From the NCBI GenBank assembly GCA_965261735.1, contig OZ253470.1:1376001-1440000 (forward strand): DNA of 64,000 bases. The letters are read 5' to 3'. Every line of letters starts with the position of its first letter. Within the stretch, counting starts at the first letter, position 1. Positions 4,640 through 38,742 of this stretch are shown in pieces. Below the pieces are notes generated by a model, which did no database searches, was not told where the DNA came from, and worked only from the letters and a program-made list of their open reading frames with translations. A program made the position numbers and the translations under genes. This stretch comes from Alphaproteobacteria bacterium (GTDB lineage: Bacteria > Pseudomonadota > Alphaproteobacteria > SHVV01).

Positions 4640-7504
<2,865 letters not shown>

Positions 7505-7674
7505 CAGGCCACAGGCGCACGCCGGGCGCGCACCGCCTCTTGTTGCCGTTCCGCCAGGTTCATGTGCGTGGAGCTAGGGGCCGAAACCACGGCCGATCCT
7601 CCGTCATTCACCATTAACAATTCGTTGCATCGGGGCCGATTTCAACCGGCGCGCCGACCTACGCGGCTCGGGCG

Positions 7675-8543
7675 CTAGAGGAGCTCGGCCAGCGTGCTGC
7701 CGATCGCCGCGGGTGATTCGGCCACGATCATGCCAGCCGAGCGCATGGCCTCGATCTTGGCCTCGGCGCCACCCTCGCCACCCGAGATGATCGCACCGGC
7801 GTGGCCCATGCGCCGGCCCGGCGGCGCCGTAAGGCCGGCTATGAACCCGACGGTCGGCTTCTTGATCTTGCTCGCCTTGAGAAAGGCGGCCGCCTCCTCC
7901 TCGGCCGCACCGCCGATCTCGCCGATCATGATGATCGCTTCGGTCTCGTCGTCGCCGAGGAAGAGCTCGAGGCAATCGATGAAGCTGGTGCCGCTGACGG
8001 GATCGCCGCCAATGCCGATGCAGGTCGTCTGGCCGAGGCCCGCGGCCGTGGTCTGGCCCACCGCTTCGTAGGTGAGCGTGCCCGAACGCGACACGATGCC
8101 GACACGGCCGCGGGTGTGAATGTGCCCTGGCATGATGCCGATCTTGCATTCGCCGGGCGTGATAACCCCCGGACAGTTGGCGCCGATGAGGCGCGAGCCC
8201 GAGCCTTGAAGCGCGCGTTTGACCCCCACCATGTCGAGCACCGGGATGCCCTCGGTGATGCAGACGATCAGGCTCACGCCGGCATCGATCGCCTCGTGGA
8301 TGGCGTCGGCGGCGAACGTGGGCGGCACGTAGATCACGGAGGCGTCGGCACCGGTCGCGGCCACCGCCTCGTCGACCGTATCGAAGACCGGCAGGTCGAG
8401 ATGGACGCTGCCGCCCTTGCCCGGCGTCACGCCGCCCATCATGCGCGTCCCGTAGGCGATGGCCTGCTCGGAATGGAACGTGCCCTGGGCGCCGGTGAAG
8501 CCCTGACAGATGACCTTCGTCGCCGAGCCCACGAGAACCGACA

Positions 8544-8544: not shown

Positions 8545-9713
<1,169 letters not shown>

Positions 9714-29693: not shown

Positions 29694-29810
29694 GATCGTT
29701 CCTCCCACGCCGGTTTCTCTGGCGGCGATCCTAGCCGCTCGCGGCGCGGTGACAAAGCGCGCCGGTGGCGCAGCGTTCCGCCGCGCCGCGAAGTGGGCCA
29801 TAGTGCGGCG

Positions 29811-30537
29811 ATGATCGTGCTGTTCATCGATTTCGGCGCCGGCGGGCCCTATGTCGGACAGATGAAGGCAGTGCTCCATCGGTTGGCGCCCGGGGTCGAT
29901 ATCATCGAACTGCTTGCCGATGCGCCGGCGTACGACGTCGAGGCCGCCGCCTACCTCCTGGCCGCCTACGCCGCGGGCTTCCCGCCCGCCACGGTATTCC
30001 TCTGCGTCGTCGACCCCGGTGTCGGTACAGCGCGCCGGGCGGCCGCGATCGAGGCCGACGGGCGCTGGTACGTGGCCCCGGACAATGGCCTGCTCAACGT
30101 GGTCGCGACCCGGGCCGGGCGCTTGTACTGGTGGGACATCACCTGGCGCCCGCAGCGCCTGTCGGCGAGCTTCCACCGCCGCGACTTGTTCGCGCCGGTC
30201 GCCGCCCGGCTCGCCCAGGGCGGCGCGGTGCCGAGCGAGCGCGCAGATACCACCGAGCGCCTCCGGCCCGGCTGGCCCGACGATCTCGCCCGCATCGTCT
30301 ACGTCAGATCATTTCGGCAACGCTATCACCGGCATGCGCGCCTCGGAGCTCGACGACGACCGCGTCATCGCGGCGGCGGGGCGGCGCCTGGGCCGCGCCC
30401 GCACCTTCGCCGACACGCCCCAGGGCGAGGCCTTCTGGTACGAGAACGCAAACGGCCTCGCCGAGATCGCCGTCAACGGCGGCCGCGCCGCCGACGTCCT
30501 CGGCCTTTCCGTGGGGACGGCGGTGCGCGTGATCTAG
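29811..30537 (+). pseudogene. DUF62 / SAM hydroxide adenosyltransferase (chlorinase/fluorinase-like), frameshifted
   Basis: DFG..YVGQMK, VVDPGVG and APDNGL motifs. An extra A at 30306 breaks YV-DHFGN, and the conserved FHGRD reads FHRRD. Confidence 0.88.
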
Positions 30538-31258
30538 GGCATGATGGTGAAACCGAGCCGGCGGCCGGCCTGGCGGGGCCATTCGCGCACTTTCTGGTTG
30601 CAGTGTTCGCTGCTAACATCCGGCCATGGCGCGCACTCGAATCATAGCCGTTCTAGCCTGGGCGCTCTGCGTATGCGCCGGCGTCCTGTCCGCCTCGGCT
30701 GCCGCCGAGCGCTACCCGGTGTGGTGGGCGCCGGAGATCGGGATTGCGAGCCTCGACGAGATCGACGCGCTGCTGGCGAAGCCGTTACCCGAGGAGTTCC
30801 GCCACAGGCTCTACAAGTTCGACTATGGCCGCGGCAAGTGGGAGTCGCCCATCGTCGACCGGCAGCCGATCGAGGACTGCGTATCGCTATTCGAATGGCT
30901 TGCGGCCGGCTACAAGTGGGGCGCCGAGGACCGCGACTATGATGGTTATCACAGGGCGTATCCCTACTGCTACACGCTGCGCGCGATAGACCGGGCCAAG
31001 CCGGCGAAAGAAAGCTACGTGCGCAACTTCGTCATGGACGCGAATGCCCTAGCAGGCTGCTGAAAAAGTCCTCGCCTTTGCAGTTGTGACATGATTCTGT
31101 GATTCCTTCGAGTGATGGAGGATGGCATGCGGGGTCGAGATCAAAGCAGTGGCAATTTATTCAGCTACGTAGACTTGGAAGAGCGTGTTCCGGATGATCA
31201 TCCGCTGCGTCTGATCCGTGAGATCGTGAACGACGTATTGGGCTCTCTATCTTCGGAG

Positions 31259-32591
31259 CTTGCCTATCCGGTTAACGCCCATGACCGCTACATGTAGGGT
31301 GCCGCCACTCTCCCGAGTAAAGCTCGGCATAGGTTGGAGCAGAGGTGTCACCCGCGATGCCGAGCAATGAGCGGAAGGCGTTGAACGGGTAGAACCGCCT
31401 GTTGAAGCGGAAGGTGAACTCGTTGAGGTAGGCTTGTAGGTGCTGGTGGCTAACGCCGTGGTGGATACCGATCAGCCACGTCTTCAGGTTGGCGAAAACC
31501 AGATGGATGATCGGCAGGTATTGCTCGGCAACCTCTGGATCAGCACACTCGGCAACAGCGAAGTGCTCATAGCCGCGCTTCCCGAGGCCAGCATAGCCGC
31601 TCCAATCGTCAGTAACGATCAGCGATCGCGGCGCGACGGTGCTCTCGACGAACCCACAGACCGACTCGGCGCTACGGTCGAGCACGACGGCGAGCCGAAC
31701 GCGTCCGGCATAGCGTCCGTCCTTGCCTATCCGGTTAACGCCCATGACCGCTACATGTAGGGTGCCGCCACTCTCCCGAGTAAAGCTCGGCATAGGTTGG
31801 AGCAGAGGTGTCGCCCGCGATGCCGAGCAATGAGCGGAAGGCGTTGAACGGGTAGAACCGCCTGTTGAAGCGGAAGGTGAACTCGTTGAGGTAGGCTTGT
31901 AGGTGCTGGTGGCTAACGCCGTGGTGGATACCGATCAGCCACGTCTTCCTTTCCGGTTGTCGAGCTTGGTGCCCGGCTTTCGATGACGCACCTCGATGGC
32001 ACAGGAGACGGGGACCTTGTGGTGAACACCACGGCCTTCCCCACGCGTTCGCCCGCCAACCCAGGTTTCGTCCACCTCAACATGGTTCTTGGGCTGTCCA
32101 CCGATCCTGTCTTGGTTGGGCCGCACCATGCCCGAGCGGAGCTTGTGGAGAATTTGAAAGGCCGTCTCGTAGCGCGAAAGACCAAGTTGCCGCTGAAACT
32201 GCACGGCGGACATGCCGGGCGTCTGACTGGCGACCAGATAAGCGGCCCAGAACCAGACGTTCAGCGGAGTGTGGCTACGCTCCATCACTGTTCCCACCGT
32301 CAGCCCGGTGTTCTAGCGGCACTTGCGGCAGCGCAGGACGCCAGGGCGGTTTTCAAAGTGGAACGGCTCTCCCGCCGTGCCGCAGTGCGGGCAAGCAAAG
32401 CCGTCTCCCCAGCGGGCTTTCTCCAGGTAGGCGGCGCAGGCCGCATCATCGGGGAAAAGTCGCTGGAACTCGGGTAGCGAATGCGGGAATGGGAGATCGG
32501 CGCGGTCGAGAACATCCATGGCGCGCTCCCCTATATCCGGTTTGCGCCCATTCTAGCCCTAGTGGGTGTGGGTGTAAACCGGATAGGAAAG
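31259..32591 (-). mobile_element. IS1595-family copy A (defective)
   Basis: Ends CTTGCCTATCCGGTTAAC and CTTTCCTATCCGGTTTAC; 8-bp TSD CTTCGGAG at 31251-31258 and 32592-32599. The transposase has a TAG at 32313-32315 and an internal insertion. Confidence 0.92.
31722..31948 (-). mobile_element. 227-bp terminal fragment of the same IS1595 inserted inside copy A
   Basis: Repeats 31259-31485, starting exactly at the IR (CTTGCCTATCCGGTTAAC) and ending at ACGTCTTC. Confidence 0.88.
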
Positions 32592-33524
32592 CTTCGGAGT
32601 TCGAGACGCTTTATTCCCACATGGGTCGCCCATCGATCCCGCCGGAGAAGCTTCTTCGAGCGTTACTGTTGCAAGCGTTTTATTCGATCCGCTCGGAGCG
32701 TCAGCTGATGGAGCAGCTAAACTTCAACATGCTGTTTTGCTGGTTTGTGGGGCTTGGGCTGGACGATGGCGTGTGGGACGCCAGCGCGTTCTGCCACAAC
32801 CGGGACCGTCTTCTGGAGGCGGAGGTTTCGGGGCAGCTGCTTGCGGGGGTTATCCAGCACCACAAGGTAGGGGGACTATTGAGCCGGGATCATTTTTTCG
32901 GTAGACGGAACATTGATCGAGGCCTGGGCGTCGATGAAGAGCTTTCGTCCCAAAGGTGAGGACGATGGCGACGGGGGATCGGGGCGCAACGCCGCGCGGG
33001 ATTTTCATGGCGAGAAACGCTCGAACGCGACCCATGCAAGCACCACTGATCCGGACGCCCGGCTTTATCGCAAGGGTAATGGCCGGGAAAGCAAGCTGTG
33101 TTACATGGGCCATGCGCTGACGGAGAACCGCCATGGTCTGGCAGTCGGCGGCGGCGTGACCATTGCGTCGGGCACGGCGGAACGCGAAGCCGCCCTTGAT
33201 CTGATCGACAGGCATCGCCCGGTGGAGAGTAGAGGCGGGCGGCGTCGGATCACGGTGGGCGGGGACAAGGGTTTTGACGTCGCGGATTTTGTCGAGGAAC
33301 TGCGGCACCGCAAGGTGACCCCCCATATCGCCGTCCAGGACCACGTCACCAAGACCGGCAAGCGGCGCAAGACCAAGATAGACGGGCGCACGACGCGCCA
33401 TCCCGGTTACGGCGTCAGCCAACGTTGCCGCAAGCGCATCGAGGAGGTCTTCGGCTGGGTCAAGACGAGCGCGGGATTGAGCAAGACCAAATTCCGGGGC
33501 CGCCACCGGGTCGACGCTTCGTTC

Positions 33525-34629
33525 CTTACCTATCCGGTTTACACCCACACCCACTAGGGCTAGAATGGGCGCAACCCGGATATAGGGGAGCGCGCCATGG
33601 ATGTTCTCGACCGCGCCGATCTCCCATTCCCGCATTCGTTACCCGAGTTCCAGCGACTTTTCCCCGATGATGCGGCCTGCGCCGCCTACCTGGAGAAAGC
33701 CCGCTGGGGAGACGGCTTTGCCTGCCCGCACTGCGGCACGGCGGGAGAGCCGTTCCACTTTGAAAACCGCCCTGGCGTCCTGCGCTGCCGCAAGTGCCGC
33801 CAGAACACCGGGCTGACGGTGGGAACAGTGATGGAGCGTAGCCACACTCCGCTGAACGTCTGGTTCTGGGCCGCTTATCTGGTCGCCAGTCAGACGCCCG
33901 GCATGTCCGCCGTGCAGTTTCAGCGGCAACTTGGTCTTTCGCGCTACGAGACGGCCTTTCAAATTCTCCACAAGCTCCGCTCGGGCATGGTGCGGCCCAA
34001 CCAAGACAGGATCGGTGGACAGCCCAAGAACCATGTTGAGGTGGACGAAACCTGGGTTGGCGGGCGAACGCGTGGGGAAGGCCGTGGTGTTCACCACAAG
34101 GTTCCCGTCTCCTGTGCCATCGAGGTGCGTCATCGAAAGCCGGGCACCAAGCTCGACAACCGGAAAGACGGACGCTATGCCGGACGCGTTCGGCTCGCCG
34201 TCGTGCTCGACCGTAGCGCCGAGTCGCTCTGTGGGTTCGTCGAGAGCACCGTCGCGCCGCGATCGCTGATCGTTACTGACGATTGGAGCGGCTATGCTGG
34301 CCTCGGTAAGCGCGGCTATGAGCACTTCGCTGTTGCCGAGTGTGGTGATCCAGAGGTTGCCGAGCAATACCTGCCGATCATCCATCTGGTTTTCGCCAAC
34401 CTGAAGACGTGGCTGATCGGTATCCACCACGGCGTTAGCCACCAGCACCTACAAGCCTACCTCAACGAGTTCACCTTCCGCTTCAACAGGCGGTTCTACC
34501 CGTTCAACGCCTTCCGCTCATTGCTCGGCATCGCGGGCGACACCTCTGCTCCAACCTATGCCGAGCTTTACTCGGGAGAGTGGCGGCACCCTACATGTAG
34601 CGGTCATGGGCGTTAACCGGATAGGCAAG
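33525..34629 (+). mobile_element. IS1595-family copy B (1105 bp, intact)
   Basis: Ends CTTACCTATCCGGTTTAC and GTTAACCGGATAGGCAAG; flanks CTTCGTTC and GATCGTTC (6/8 match). Confidence 0.92.
33597..34616 (+). CDS. IS1595-family transposase
   Basis: Zn ribbon CPHC..CRKC, HTH, VEVDETWVGG, IVTDDWSGY, YLNEFTFRFNRR. Confidence 0.95.
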   Translation: MDVLDRADLPFPHSLPEFQRLFPDDAACAAYLEKARWGDGFACPHCGTAGEPFHFENRPGVLRCRKCRQNTGLTVGTVMERSHTPLNVWFWAAYLVASQTPGMSAVQFQRQLGLSRYETAFQILHKLRSGMVRPNQDRIGGQPKNHVEVDETWVGGRTRGEGRGVHHKVPVSCAIEVRHRKPGTKLDNRKDGRYAGRVRLAVVLDRSAESLCGFVESTVAPRSLIVTDDWSGYAGLGKRGYEHFAVAECGDPEVAEQYLPIIHLVFANLKTWLIGIHHGVSHQHLQAYLNEFTFRFNRRFYPFNAFRSLLGIAGDTSAPTYAELYSGEWRHPTCSGHGR

Positions 34630-34699
34630 GATCGTTCACCCTGGCCTTCGCCGCCTACAACCTCGTCCGACTACCCAGACTGCTGGCGGAGGCGCCAAC

Positions 34700-34861
34700 A
34701 TGACGGGCGATGCCGGCACGCCGCTGACCGCAAAGTGGCAGATCATCGAACTGGACGAAGCCCAGGGCATCGGATCGGTCGAGATTGAAGACGGTTTCAC
34801 CCTAAGACACGAAATCTCATTTCATTTCGGCGATGAATCCGAGTTCAAGGCCCGGCAATGA
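34700..34861 (+). pseudogene. short (53 aa) passenger ORF of the IS5 element, probably internally deleted
   Basis: The ATG overlaps the transposase stop. MTGDAGTPLTAKWQIIELDEAQG..EISFHFGDESEFKARQ resembles the two ends of the small hypothetical protein often found after these transposases (from recall). Confidence 0.45.
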
Positions 34862-35356
34862 TGACTTTTTCAGCAGCCTGCTAGACTACATACTGGCGCT
34901 GCTCGGCCCCTGGGGGTGCCGCCAGATTGGCTACCCACTGTGGGCTAATCTGAATGGGGTGCCGTGGAGCCGCTACGACTTCGGATATCCAACGCCGCCG
35001 CGCTTCGTCAAAGTCGTGGAGAACCCGAACGGATTCGTCCTCCAAGATTGGATCGAAGAGGACAACACACACTATTTGGACGACGTTTTCGAGATCGTCG
35101 GGCGCGGCGACATCAACGACGATGGCCTCGACGACATCATCGTCAGGAGCACGACCGTCTTCTACGATACATTGAGCAGCGATTCCGAGCTTTACCTGGT
35201 CTCGCGCGCCCACGCCGACGATATCCTCCGCGTCGTCGAGGTCTTGAGCCCGCTCGCCAGCGACCGCAACAACTGCGTTCCGGGAACGCTACAGCTGTGG
35301 AAGCCGCGGTAGGTTGCGGCGGCGCCAGGGCACGACAATCTGGGCGCGGCCCGCGC

Positions 35357-35530
35357 TCATAACAGGACCGGGCCCGCATCGACGGTGAGGGCGGGATTGG
35401 CCGCGCGACCCCACTGGATCACCGGTTTCAGTTCGACCCGCTTCTTGAAGTCGACCCAGCAGGGCTCTGCTTGGCGGCCTCGAGCAGCCGGACGCGCACT
35501 TTCTGGTTGCGTGGTTCGGCGCTAACATCC
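35357..35530 (-). pseudogene. orphan 3' remnant of the muramidase gene
   Basis: Encodes ..RNQKVRVRLLEAAK/EPCWVDFKKRVELKPVIQWGRAANPALTVDAGPVLL*, versus ..RNDKTREWLLEAAKQEPCWVDFKKRVQLKPVIQWGRAANPDLTIDPGPILL* in 36440-37420; 1-nt deletion near 35467. Confidence 0.9.
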
Positions 35531-35534
35531 GGCC

Positions 35535-36395
35535 ATGGCGCGCACTCGAATCATAGCCGTTCTAGCCTGGGCGCTCTGCGTATGCGCCGGCGTCCTGTCC
35601 GCCTCGGCTGCCGCCCAGCGCTACCCGGTGTGGTGGGCGCCGGAGATCGGGATCGCGAGCCTCGACGAGATCGACGCGCTGCTCGCCAAGCCGTTTGCCG
35701 AAGAGCACCGCCACTGGCTCTACAAGTTTGAGTACAGGGGAAGGTGGGAGTCGCCCTTCGTCGACCAGCAGCCGATCGACGACTGCCTGTCGTTGTTCGA
35801 GCGGCTGGCGGCCGGCTACGAGTCAGGTGTCGAAGATCGGGACGAGCTGCTGGCCTACCGCCGCACCTATCCTCGGTGCTACGCCCTGCTTGCGCTCAAG
35901 CGGGCCAAGCCGGCGAGAGTGAGCTACGTGCGCGACTTCGTCATGGACGCGAACACCCTCGATTACATGCCGGCGATGCTCGGCTACTGGTGGTGCAGTC
36001 CCCGCTCGTACCCGCAGGTCGTACGAGCGAACCGCGACGGCGTTCCGTGGAACCGCTTCGATTTTGGCTACGAATCCGGGTGGGGCTACCGGGTGGGCGT
36101 GGTGAAGAACCGCAACGTCTTCGTTCTTCAGACGTGGGCCGAGGACCACGGTCGCCGCTACGATGAAATATTCGAGATCATTGGCCGCGGGGATTTCAAC
36201 GATGACGGTCTGGACGACCTCCTCGTACGCGTGACGGTCGCCGATCATCCTCCTGAGGACGTTATTTCGGAGCTGTTCCTGCTGTCGCGGGTCCATACCG
36301 ACAGCGTACTTCGCGTTGCCGCGATCCTGAGCCCCTTGGACAACGAACGCAACCGCTGCGCGCCGGGGCCCGACGAGCTGTGGAGACGGCGATAA
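35535..36395 (+). CDS. secreted 4-Cys protein, paralog 2 (putative cognate immunity protein / lysozyme inhibitor)
   Basis: Sec signal ending ..SASAAA, four Cys conserved with paralog 1, GDFNDDGLDDLLV loop; convergent with the muramidase. The function is inferred. Confidence 0.75.
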   Translation: MARTRIIAVLAWALCVCAGVLSASAAAQRYPVWWAPEIGIASLDEIDALLAKPFAEEHRHWLYKFEYRGRWESPFVDQQPIDDCLSLFERLAAGYESGVEDRDELLAYRRTYPRCYALLALKRAKPARVSYVRDFVMDANTLDYMPAMLGYWWCSPRSYPQVVRANRDGVPWNRFDFGYESGWGYRVGVVKNRNVFVLQTWAEDHGRRYDEIFEIIGRGDFNDDGLDDLLVRVTVADHPPEDVISELFLLSRVHTDSVLRVAAILSPLDNERNRCAPGPDELWRRR

Positions 36396-36439
36396 CTTGC
36401 ATCAACGCTAACGCAAGGCAAACTCGGCGCGGCCCACAC

Positions 36440-37420
36440 TCACAGCAGGATCGGGCCCGGGTCGATGGTGAGGTCGGGGTTCGCCGCCCTGCCCCACTGG
36501 ATCACCGGTTTCAATTGCACCCGCTTCTTGAAGTCGACCCAGCAGGGCTCCTGCTTGGCCGCCTCGAGCAGCCATTCGCGGGTCTTGTCGTTCCTCTCGG
36601 CTTGAGCCTGTGTGCGATGTGACAGCGCCGCCGCCCGCTTCCAATTCCTCGTATTGACCGCCTTGCCGAATTTCCCCTCTTGATGGTCTTCCGCACCCTT
36701 GGCGCCCAGCTGGTAGGCCATGTCGAGGACCGCGAGCTTGGCTTCGTGGGGGTACGTGTCGAAAGCGCTGAATTCCTTCCGTCTCCTGACCTCTTTGATC
36801 TTTATGTCGATATCTATTAGGGCGAGTTCTATGGCCCTGTTCTCTCTGATCTCGGCCTCGGTTTCGCTGTGGGCTAGCCACGGCTTGTTTACTTCGCCCT
36901 GGTGCGTGACTCTCGCGAAATCGTCGCTTAGGACCTTGTCCGAGGCCGGCGCGCCGCCCACCTTGAGCACGAAGTAGTCGCGTAGGCGATGCGCCTCCCC
37001 GACATCGGGGAGCCAATGGCCGAAGCCGACGGTCATCTCGCCGCCCCCGTCGAGGTGCATGAAGCCGATGTAGTTGCCGCGGTAGTTTTCCACCCCTTTT
37101 AGGTGTTCCAGGAGCTCGTTCACGTAGTCCTTGTGTTCGGGCGCGGTCATGTCGCGGCTGAAGGTCTCCTGGCTGAAGTCGATGAAGGGGTGGCAGGTGT
37201 CGGATTTGACGAGGATCTCCTTGTTGCCCGCGGGCGCCACCGCCCAGCGCGCCGCGCCGAGGCGGAGTAGCTCCTCGGCGAGCACGGCTCGCGGGGTCGC
37301 GCGCGCCTTGAGCAGCGCGACCTGCTCGATGCGCTCGCAGAACTGGCGCGCCCAGGCGGGTCCGCCGAGCTTCGCCGCCTTGCACTCGATGTCCGCGCGG
37401 GTGGGATCGCCTGCCGTCAT
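36440..37420 (-). CDS. T4-lysozyme-like (GH24-related) muramidase with extra N- and C-terminal segments, no signal peptide
   Basis: E..MHLDGGGEMTVGFGH (E/D-x5-T triad), LAVLDMAYQLG, FGKAVNTRNWKRAA..SHR..ERN; GGAGAAG RBS. Confidence 0.75.
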   Translation of the reverse strand: MTAGDPTRADIECKAAKLGGPAWARQFCERIEQVALLKARATPRAVLAEELLRLGAARWAVAPAGNKEILVKSDTCHPFIDFSQETFSRDMTAPEHKDYVNELLEHLKGVENYRGNYIGFMHLDGGGEMTVGFGHWLPDVGEAHRLRDYFVLKVGGAPASDKVLSDDFARVTHQGEVNKPWLAHSETEAEIRENRAIELALIDIDIKIKEVRRRKEFSAFDTYPHEAKLAVLDMAYQLGAKGAEDHQEGKFGKAVNTRNWKRAAALSHRTQAQAERNDKTREWLLEAAKQEPCWVDFKKRVQLKPVIQWGRAANPDLTIDPGPILL

Positions 37421-37452
37421 GGTTCTTCTCCGTCAATCTTGATGCGCCACCC

Positions 37453-38470
37453 TCAGCGGATGGCGCGGCCGATGGGGCCGTTGCGCAGGATGTCGTCGAG
37501 GATCGCGGCCTTGGTGCGGGCGATGATGCGGTCGCCCTCGGTACGTAGCACGGCGACCGCCGCCGGGCTCGCGCCGCGGAAGTCGAAGTTGAAGGTCTGG
37601 TGGAAGTTGACGACGGTGCGGGCGGTTGCCGCAGCGGCGCGCCCTGCGCCCGCGAGCCGGTTGTGGGGCACGATGGCGCCGGCGGCGGCGGGCACGAAAA
37701 GCTCGGGCCCCGCCTCGCCCACGAGATAGGGGATGCGGGGCAGCACCGGCCTGCCGTGCTGCTTGCCGAAGATACCGGTGAGGCCGCCCCTGAGCAGCTC
37801 CGAGATCGGCGCGACGACGCCGGTGCGGAGCATGTCGCTCGCGATGTCGTCGAGGATGCTCGAGGCGATGTCGCGCAGGCGCTTGAACTCGAACTCGTTC
37901 GACCGCACCATGTCGCCGGACCGCGCGGGTCACGCGGCCCATGCCGCGCTCCATGATGGTCGTGACGGCACCCACGGCCTCAGCGACGGGTCCCACCATC
38001 GCCGCATCGAGCTGGCCGAACGTCCCGTTGATGGCGTCGAGCGTCGCGGGCATGGATTTGTCGATATCCTCTTGGAGCTTGCGAAAGGCCACGCTCGCCG
38101 CCGTGGTGTCCACCTGTACGCCCTTCAGGGTCTCGCGCAGGGGCTCGTACACCGCCTCGGTGTCCCGCCGCAGGCCCTTCAGGGACTCGCGCAGGGACTC
38201 GCGCGCCGCCTCCAAACCCTCCGTCGGGATCCGAGGAACGTGCGCGTTGCCCGTAGCGCCACCGGGGGCGTCCGCCGTTTCCGCCTTGCGGCCCGGCAGC
38301 TTGAGGCCGGCGAGGCCCTGGCGCAGACCCGCCAGGCTTTCGCGCAGGGGCGCCAGCGGCGCCTTGATCTTCTCGACCGCCTGGGCGACCATCTTGTGCG
38401 CCCGGTCCAAGTCCGCGCCGAGGCGCGGCGTATCCACCACGAATTTTATTAGAAACTCATCGTTTGCCAT
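37453..38470 (-). pseudogene. short GTA/phage tail tape-measure-like protein (~338 aa), +1 frameshift near 37918
   Basis: AGGAG RBS and start MANDEFLIKF, then helical repeats (LRESLKGL / LRETLKGV). Removing one C joins RVTRAV-GDMVRSNEFEFKRLRDIASSIL and leads to PYLVGEAGPELFVP..GAIVP, typical of tape-measure C-termini. Confidence 0.65.
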
Positions 38471-38602
38471 CGTTGCTCCTGCTCGCGGCGCATCCGCGTG
38501 CGCCCGATCATTCCGTTCTCCCGGCGCTCTCGATGCCCTCGTTCTATCAACCCGAACAACCGCGGGCCTGATCACTCATTGATACGTTCGGTGTCCTATC
38601 GT

Positions 38603-38638
38603 GATGCGCATGATACGTTGCGCATCGCATAATGTCTA
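38603..38638 (-). promoter_or_regulatory. sigma70-type promoter with overlapping palindromic operator for the tape-measure/muramidase operon
   Basis: Minus strand TAGACA (38638-38633), N17, TATCAT (38615-38610). The palindrome GATGCGCA-N8-TGCGCATC (38603-38626) straddles the -10. Confidence 0.6.
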
Positions 38639-38742
38639 TATCTTGTGCTACGGAGCTGCTCTGCACCCAGGTCATGGGTCTCAGGGCTGCACCGTGGCGC
38701 CGCACCGGCGCCCGGCACGCCGACCCTTTGCGAAAACGCGCT

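Follow-up and report, generated by a model that had tools for sequence, protein, structure and literature searches.

A divergent GH24 muramidase facing an exported four-cysteine protein in an alphaproteobacterial genome: an eroding copy of a candidate enzyme-inhibitor pair of gene transfer agent-like tail modules

We analysed a stretch of 64,000 nucleotides (nt), here called the window, from the genome of an Alphaproteobacteria bacterium (GenBank assembly GCA_965261735.1, contig OZ253470.1, positions 1,376,001 to 1,440,000 of the forward strand). At about 30584-38648 it carries an island in which a gene for a divergent muramidase of the T4-lysozyme type faces a gene for an exported protein with four cysteines. 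Coordinates are window positions unless given as genome positions; the genome (G000 in our numbering) is closed, 5.03 Mb in size and 98% complete. We suggest, with a probability of roughly one half, that the two genes encode a muramidase and its cognate periplasmic inhibitor, that the pair is native to the tail modules of clusters resembling gene transfer agents (GTAs), and that it is comparable to gp5 and Spackle of phage T4 or to pesticin and its immunity protein Pim. The copy in the island is eroding, and this genome has no tail for it to serve.

The muramidase gene lies on the minus strand at 36440..37420 (ATG at 37420). Its product of 326 residues is, to judge from profile searches, alignment and an AlphaFold2 model, a divergent GH24 muramidase with the T4-lysozyme fold, which bears out the lysozyme-like assignment of an earlier annotation made from the letters alone (the first-pass annotation). 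The protein itself had no Pfam match at an expectation value (E) of 0.01 and fell below the gathering threshold of PF00959. A profile of the protein and its paralogues, searched against the PDB sequences, found T4 lysozyme at E 3.6e-5 over the catalytic motif and the C-lobe, with the motif aligned to T4 lysozyme residues 3-35. Among 1.84 billion representative proteins there were 3005 relatives at E <= 0.001, and 65 of them reached E <= 1e-30. In an alignment of 82 sequences, five matched the pesticin activity domain PF16754, which the window protein did not match, and 57 matched PF00959; because so many relatives match PF00959 while the protein has no such match of its own, we place it in a divergent branch of GH24. 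E111 is invariant in the 82 sequences, and D124 and T130 are each conserved in at least 90% of them; the catalytic triad of T4 lysozyme is E11, D20 and T26.

The AlphaFold2 model built from the 82-sequence alignment had a predicted local distance difference test (pLDDT) score of 90.9 and replaced an earlier one from eight sequences (57.5). With VIA-align it superposed on T4 lysozyme at Z 13.9, with a root-mean-square deviation of 2.7 and 148 aligned positions, and on DLP12 endolysin, P22 lysozyme and pesticin at Z 12.6, 11.8 and 10.5, respectively. The structural matches of residues 97-290 included the muramidase domain of SpmX, and those to T4 lysozyme, P22 lysozyme and pesticin ranged from Z 10.5 to 14.4; Foldseek gave TM (template modelling) scores of 0.58-0.69, normalised to T4 lysozyme. 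The protein can be divided into an N-terminal domain (N-domain, residues 1-95), a catalytic domain (about 97-290) and a low-confidence tail (296-326). The N-domain is confidently modelled as three helices and a small sheet, with no fold class assigned; against the PDB sequences it found nothing significant, de novo designed beta-trefoil proteins being nearest at E 0.025. As had been annotated, there is no signal peptide, and the N-terminus has no hydrophobic stretch. A profile search for distant relatives reached ten loci, mostly in Acidobacteriota, which hold the lysozyme core only, and none of the ten had an exported-protein or tape-measure neighbour. An alphaproteobacterial genome (G180, contig C2, 560333-584501) contains five GH24-core paralogues without the N-domain within 24 kb.

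The intact gene for the exported protein (286 residues) occupies 35535..36395 on the plus strand, convergent with the muramidase gene. Its N-terminus reads by eye as signal-peptide-like, some paralogues start with what reads by eye as a lipobox-like AVAGC, and the protein has four conserved cysteines and an RGDFNGDGLDD loop of the FG-GAP kind. No family of Pfam or NCBIfam matched it. The PDB sequences gave nothing significant (all E > 0.5, the best at 0.58, on the FG-GAP-like loop), a Protein Atlas look-up gave unnamed clusters only, one of them with FG-GAP in 23% of its members, and there was no match in 50,697 phage records or in 72,556 plasmid records. The loop is a generic pattern, and a search for related loci with the exported-protein alignment returned as its sole match an unrelated Stieleria repeat protein. 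The ratio of nonsynonymous to synonymous substitution rates (dN/dS) is 0.25-0.35. We regard the exported protein as a candidate periplasmic inhibitor of the muramidase. Co-folding of the muramidase with the mature exported protein (residues 28-286) scored 0.00 in both runs, which speaks neither for nor against binding.

The stop codons of the two genes are 44 nt apart on opposite strands, so that the genes stand tail to tail, as the first-pass annotation had it, and this pattern is repeated across the genome. Muramidase pieces occur at eight loci, four of them with the gene at full length, and the exported-protein profile has 23 matches at E <= 1e-5. In some places an exported-protein gene faces a complete muramidase gene, in others just the final 36-60 codons of one (for example at genome 975864-978624 and 777752-781862); such a scrap with its exported-protein gene is present in the window, at genome 976567, 778672, 779801 and 1700574, and also in another genome (G105, contig C3). 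The tandemly amplified immunity array that had been proposed is, within the window, two copies of which one is broken; the amplification is found genome-wide.

Other genomes were covered by 401 genomes sampled evenly from the class, plus two family-level searches. The exported protein was present in 6 of the 401 and the muramidase (E <= 1e-20) in 12, and an order-level search for the exported protein gave the same eight genomes as the family-level one. Nine loci in six of these genomes hold a muramidase with the N-domain. Beside six of them lies a convergent exported protein, one has none, and two stop at a contig edge. The six pairs belong to G004 (with an array), G182, G105 (twice, one with two copies) and G409 (twice). 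Because the same convergent pair recurs in other genomes, five alphaproteobacterial ones in the overall count, we consider the arrangement to be beyond chance. Orphan or extra exported-protein genes recur as well, in the G004 array, as two copies without an enzyme in G227, in G105 and as an extra copy in G409. The accumulation of exported-protein copies and muramidase scraps beside the pair, which the first-pass annotation had likened to toxin/immunity loci, is therefore seen in several genomes.

Four of the nine foreign loci are situated beside the tube gene of GTA-like head-tail clusters (G182, G409 twice and G257), whose genes include prohead protease, HK97 capsid, connector, gp17 tail completion, Phage_tail_2 tube and DUF6950. 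In G182 and in both clusters of G409 the pair is placed between gp17 and tube, and the insertion can be recognised by a duplicated 3' fragment of gp17; in G257 the muramidase gene directly follows the tube gene. At all four loci it is co-oriented with the structural genes. The two clusters of G409 (L070 on C102 and L071 on C217) have tube proteins 99% and gp17 proteins 90% identical, and their muramidases are 60% and their exported proteins 62% identical. Such joint divergence within near-identical flanks is, by analogy, the behaviour of antagonistic enzyme/blocker pairs. The pair appears to be at home in the tail module of GTA-like clusters, as the most variable element there. The link to tails or GTAs drawn in the first-pass annotation is thus upheld by the tail modules of G182, G257 and G409, but not by this genome, which is without a tail cluster.

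Some further features of these clusters were recorded. Contig C102 of G409 has an extra exported-protein gene with a gp17 fragment, and this copy is 76% identical to that of G182. Chaperone-like and tape-measure-like open reading frames (ORFs) are found upstream of protease or capsid genes (G182 C9, 8001-34000; L071, 23-310; L058, 4984-5289); because these clusters have no tape measure between the tube and the distal tail genes, their gene order is permuted. In another GTA-like cluster, in G053 (contig C37, L055), gp17 and the tube gene are separated by an unrelated ORF of 265 residues at 7414-8211, encoded on the other strand. Accessory genes in general may use the gp17/tube junction as an insertion spot.

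A position within head-tail clusters would also suit a plain endolysin that releases GTA-like or phage particles, in which case the role of the exported protein in the envelope would be unrelated or regulatory, and this genome's copies would be debris of prophages. GH24 is a classic endolysin fold, the gene lies in such clusters in three genomes, decayed head genes exist in this genome, and copies are being lost, with frameshifts in the window, at genome 1353097 and 4565993, and in sequencing run X8. However, neither a holin nor a spanin was seen beside the muramidase, the protein has twice the typical endolysin length owing to its conserved N-domain, and tblastn found no match to it in the 50,697 phage records. 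An endolysin also does not account well for 60% identity between clusters with 99% identical tubes, in step with the facing exported protein, and debris leaves the orphan exported-protein arrays unexplained. We consider this explanation improbable, and less likely than a bacteriocin-like role.

Several observations weigh against a strictly matched enzyme and inhibitor that serve a tail. The muramidase of G257 is accompanied by two other exported ORFs instead of the exported protein. Over 840 nt the island's muramidase is 100% identical to that of another locus, and the neighbouring exported proteins are only 60% identical; because identical muramidases adjoin such different partners, strict one-to-one specificity is not evident. 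Over 28 pairs of loci, the identity of the muramidases and that of the exported proteins were weakly correlated (Spearman 0.39, p 0.04), and these pairs are not independent. Intact pairs are also kept in G000, G004 and G105 despite the lack of a PF06199 tube gene there, so that the pair may work without any tail.

The identical tract (36563-37402, muramidase codons 1 to about 286) has its counterpart in the muramidase at genome 2916487-2917464, 1.5 Mb away, at about 8606-9445 of locus L005 (C1, 2908001-2926000). Its flanks are 62-97% identical, and over the last 40 codons and the exported-protein gene identity falls to 62-83%. The tract is a very recent gene conversion, and this may explain identical enzymes beside differing partners. 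On the 3' side it breaks off where the orphan muramidase scraps begin, and the enzyme body seems to be reshuffled against the unit of tail plus partner through recombination in a conserved stretch around codon 280-290. The muramidase dN/dS of 0.13 is dominated by the converted tract.

Intact pairs in genomes without a tube gene are what a tail-independent toxin would leave. According to this explanation, which is the main rival to a tail-borne pair, the muramidase is a pesticin-like toxin and the exported protein its immunity protein; the toxin would be released by leakage, lysis or an unrecognised export route, would enter rival cells through its N-domain and would be neutralised in kin by the exported protein, and its presence in GTA-like clusters would be the hitch-hiking of a moron. 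Most loci do lie between housekeeping genes, some of them syntenic across genomes, and orphan exported-protein copies accumulate. The matches of five of the 82 relatives to the pesticin domain, and the alignment of pesticin itself to the model, point the same way. Pesticin of Yersinia pestis is described as a T4-lysozyme-like muramidase with extra N-terminal parts, made with neither a signal peptide nor a lysis gene, and Pim as its periplasmic immunity protein (PMC3390615). The enzyme of the island thus shares its architecture without a signal peptide, and has a candidate periplasmic partner.

On the other hand, no TonB box or receptor-binding domain is recognisable in the enzyme of the island, as no TonB-box-like start was seen by eye and neither a pesticin N-domain match nor a significant PDB sequence match was found for its N-domain. 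Pesticin is encoded on a plasmid, whereas the genes described here are chromosomal, occur at many loci and lie in GTA-like clusters; the exported protein had no match to any Pfam family, which may set it apart from Pim. A T6SS (type VI) sheath gene was not found in this genome, and its sole XVIPCD match is below threshold and lies elsewhere. Chance would hardly place four of nine foreign loci at one precise place of a tail module, co-oriented with the structural genes. A tail-independent toxin is accordingly possible but, in our judgement, unlikely. Two chromosomal places are similar across genomes: G105 C3 and L007 of this genome lie near hppA...plsX, and G004 and L003 of this genome lie next to gpmI. 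Such placement points to long residence or a common insertion preference.

In this genome, profile searches for tube PF06199, gp17 tail completion PF11367, DUF6950, DUF2460, Phage-tail_3 and PF10145 were all without a match, and so was that for the sheath VipB/TssC (PF05943) of type VI secretion systems (T6SS); the positive controls for the tail-gene and sheath searches matched in reference genomes. The XVIPCD domain (PF20410) had one match, at genome 3978016 and outside any muramidase, which scored 21.6 bits against a cut-off of 24.9. Weak capsid and portal matches came from head-gene remnants broken by transposases at 2.23-2.25 Mb and 2.81-2.82 Mb. In these two regions terminase, portal and capsid fragments lie among Mutator-family transposases, with no recognisable tail genes, and they resemble decayed prophage or GTA head modules. 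We rejected an RcGTA-type (Rhodobacter capsulatus GTA) cluster in this genome because the tail-family searches were empty, a T6SS effector pair because there is no sheath gene, and an X-T4SS effector because the muramidase has no XVIPCD. A plain prophage was rejected because the flanks of all own-genome loci tested are housekeeping genes or insertion sequence (IS) elements.

Upstream of the muramidase gene, and separated from it by 32 nt as the first-pass annotation had noted, is a frameshifted tape-measure-like gene on the minus strand (37453..38470; ATG at 38470, stop at 37453). The N-terminal half of its product is coiled-coil-like and repeat-rich, and the C-terminal half resembles a tape-measure C-terminal domain and carries PYLVGEAGPELFVP. 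Tape-measure families of PHROG matched weakly (1e-4 to 4e-3), phrog_30701 matched at 1.5e-13, and PF09718 was borderline, with 23.9 bits (P0021) and 22.7 bits (P0019) against a cut-off of 23; with tblastn, annotated tape measures were matched in four phage records. Homology to the short tape measures of RcGTA-like clusters extends over the C-terminal 110-190 residues (E 1e-9 to 4e-18), and in G354, G246 and G053 homologues of this half fill the tape-measure slot after the tube and chaperone genes. The relationship to the short tape measures of GTA-like clusters had been recognised correctly. The protein differs from them in having 150 extra N-terminal residues, in the lack of tube and chaperone genes alongside, and in the frameshift. 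The RcGTA tape-measure equivalog model NF058675 gave 18.5 bits, short of its cut-off of 220 bits, and the gene does not lie after tube and chaperone genes and before tail tip genes, but between ftsY and the muramidase gene in a genome without a tube gene. The C-terminal half is present in 24 of the 401 sampled genomes.

The first-pass annotation had viewed these genes as a satellite cassette with its own poly-immunity array that loads a variable muramidase onto particles, tails or GTAs, whose genes lie elsewhere. In a working cassette of this kind the tape-measure-like protein would do the loading, with the particles supplied by the same cell. The short spacing of the two genes behind a promoter-like site, the module ends of all three genes (tape-measure-like, muramidase and exported) at two other loci of this genome, and a dN/dS of about 0.4 between copies of the tape-measure-like gene would agree with a working cassette. 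However, all six tail or GTA families were unmatched in the genome, which holds only IS-riddled head-gene remnants. Among the 11 own-genome loci that hold pieces of either gene (eight with muramidase pieces), three have a tape-measure-like gene. These three copies are closely related. The gene is frameshifted in the window and truncated at genome 2917655-2918236; at 3943495-3944496 it is intact, but its muramidase has been eliminated, or separated from it, by an IS1595 element. At the foreign loci examined, the tape-measure-like gene never adjoins the muramidase. We regard a working satellite in this genome as very improbable.

The frameshift itself is due to a single additional C at about 37918. 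In intact relatives, which have 338 or 334 residues, ...TRAVGDMVRS... is read continuously in one frame. The extra base is carried by contigs of runs X1 and X3 and is missing from contigs of X4 and X8, which come from other studies; because of this difference we take it for a polymorphism between strains and not for an evident error of assembly, with the caveat that run X1 may be the genome's own source sample. In the X8 contig the muramidase gene has gained a T behind 37232, and the tape-measure-like gene is without the extra C. It appears that different strains lost different parts of the module.

Insertion sequences have contributed to the decay of the island. To the left of the pair is an orphan muramidase 3' scrap at about 35357..35496 on the minus strand, as had been annotated, with the last 37 or so codons in frame and then out-of-frame homology; its last 36 residues are 86% identical to the muramidase, and it takes part in repeat families D1 and D7. 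Beyond it lies a second copy of the exported protein, which the first-pass annotation had taken to be a diverged copy. It is present, but it is not merely diverged. Nested insertion sequences, 3.8 kb long, lie between its N-terminal part (30626..31063, plus strand; residues 1-142, 79% identical to the intact copy) and its C-terminal part (34833..35312, plus strand; aligned to residues 139-286, 50% identical). The outer element (31049..34884) is of the IS5 family, with terminal inverted repeats of 25 nt, and contains two inverted copies of the IS1595 family, one at 31259-32591, which is broken and has an internal duplication of 238 nt, and an intact one at 33525-34631 (inverted repeats I1-I4 and direct repeat D3). 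Both types of IS recur at 98-100% identity elsewhere in the genome, beside most other muramidase/exported-protein loci (L001, L004, L006, L007 and L008). Because such near-identical copies adjoin most of these loci, we consider that IS activity is eroding the family.

The limits of the island were set by homology to other copies of the module, which begins on the left at about 30584 and on the right, with L007, reaches 38648. On the 5' side of the tape-measure-like gene there is a sigma-70-like promoter match at 38610..38638 on the minus strand (TAGACA-17-TATCAT, 10 of 12 positions), a consensus match only, in agreement with the promoter that had been placed there; two such sites were found in the promoter region, where shuffles gave an expectation of 0.3. 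As had been stated, genes for a capsid, terminase, tube, integrase or T6SS were not seen in the island, and its main ORFs matched only transposases in Pfam. The neighbours of the island are ftsY on one side and a gene for SAM (S-adenosylmethionine) hydroxide adenosyltransferase on the other. The latter (29793-30647) is spread over a first frame (29793...) and a second (...30537), of which the second holds the C-terminal Pfam domain, and seems to be frameshifted near 30300. The remaining ORFs of the window, few of which were checked against Pfam, read as housekeeping genes (tricarboxylic acid cycle, cytochrome c maturation, ffh, leu and sdh).

Cell-wall-targeting enzyme/inhibitor pairs are known from bacteriocins, secretion-system effectors and phage T4. 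The mechanism that we propose for the present pair has two genes at its core, for a GH24 muramidase that is made in the cytoplasm and has an extra N-terminal domain, and for the facing exported protein, which would be disulfide-bonded. In the periplasm, the exported protein would block the cognate muramidase when it comes from outside, and would act as a factor of immunity or exclusion. The pair would be native to the tail part of alphaproteobacterial GTA-like clusters, as a fast-diverging insert between the tail-completion and tube genes, and the enzyme would most likely be carried by the particle or released with it. In this genome the tail clusters were presumably lost, leaving dispersed, IS-damaged copies, three of them with a tape-measure-derived gene upstream of the muramidase. 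The extra exported-protein genes and muramidase 3' scraps may be the residue left when the enzyme gene was deleted and the protective gene was kept. Observation covers what the genes are, how they are arranged, that the arrangement recurs, the co-divergence and the decay; binding, inhibition, the periplasmic location and the route of delivery are inferred.

Besides pesticin and Pim, the closest functional precedent is found in phage T4, in which the tail lysozyme gp5 is blocked by the periplasmic protein Spackle of the same element, for superinfection exclusion and the protection of carrier cells (PMC7677548). Both cases have a muramidase of the GH24 fold tied to a tail module and a periplasmic blocker, here a candidate, from the same element. 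However, the lysozyme of gp5 is a domain of the spike and the enzyme described here is a separate protein, and the genes here are convergent and multi-copy, with orphan arrays. Spackle is a small helical protein, and the exported protein described here has about 260 residues, four cysteines and an FG-GAP-like loop. Another comparison is offered by XAC2609 (X-Tfe) and XAC2610 (X-Tfi), a cytoplasmic lysozyme-like enzyme and an adjacently encoded periplasmic inhibitor, chromosomally dispersed (PMC10933484). That enzyme is GH19 and its genes are bicistronic, whereas here the enzyme is GH24 and the genes are convergent; the pair differs from those of the T6SS and X-T4SS in having neither a sheath gene in the genome nor XVIPCD on the muramidase.

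Literature searches, judged by titles and abstracts, found no paper that describes the muramidase/exported-protein pair. The pair combines an uncharacterised family of exported proteins and a branch of GH24 with a new N-terminal domain. A bolder extension of the proposed mechanism, which we hold to be improbable, is that GTA-like particles of some Alphaproteobacteria carry a hypervariable muramidase and that a matching periplasmic inhibitor in the recipient decides whether the wall is breached, as a code of self and non-self or of exclusion, or as a weapon; orphan inhibitors would then be collected as a defence once the particle genes had been lost, and the tape-measure-derived protein would once have been a tail adaptor. 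For this window alone the message is modest, that of an eroding copy. If the exported protein is an inhibitor, it would represent a new family of lysozyme inhibitors and would provide a testable handle on what limits uptake from, or killing by, GTA-like particles. It would also explain why small arrays of the exported-protein gene persist between housekeeping genes.

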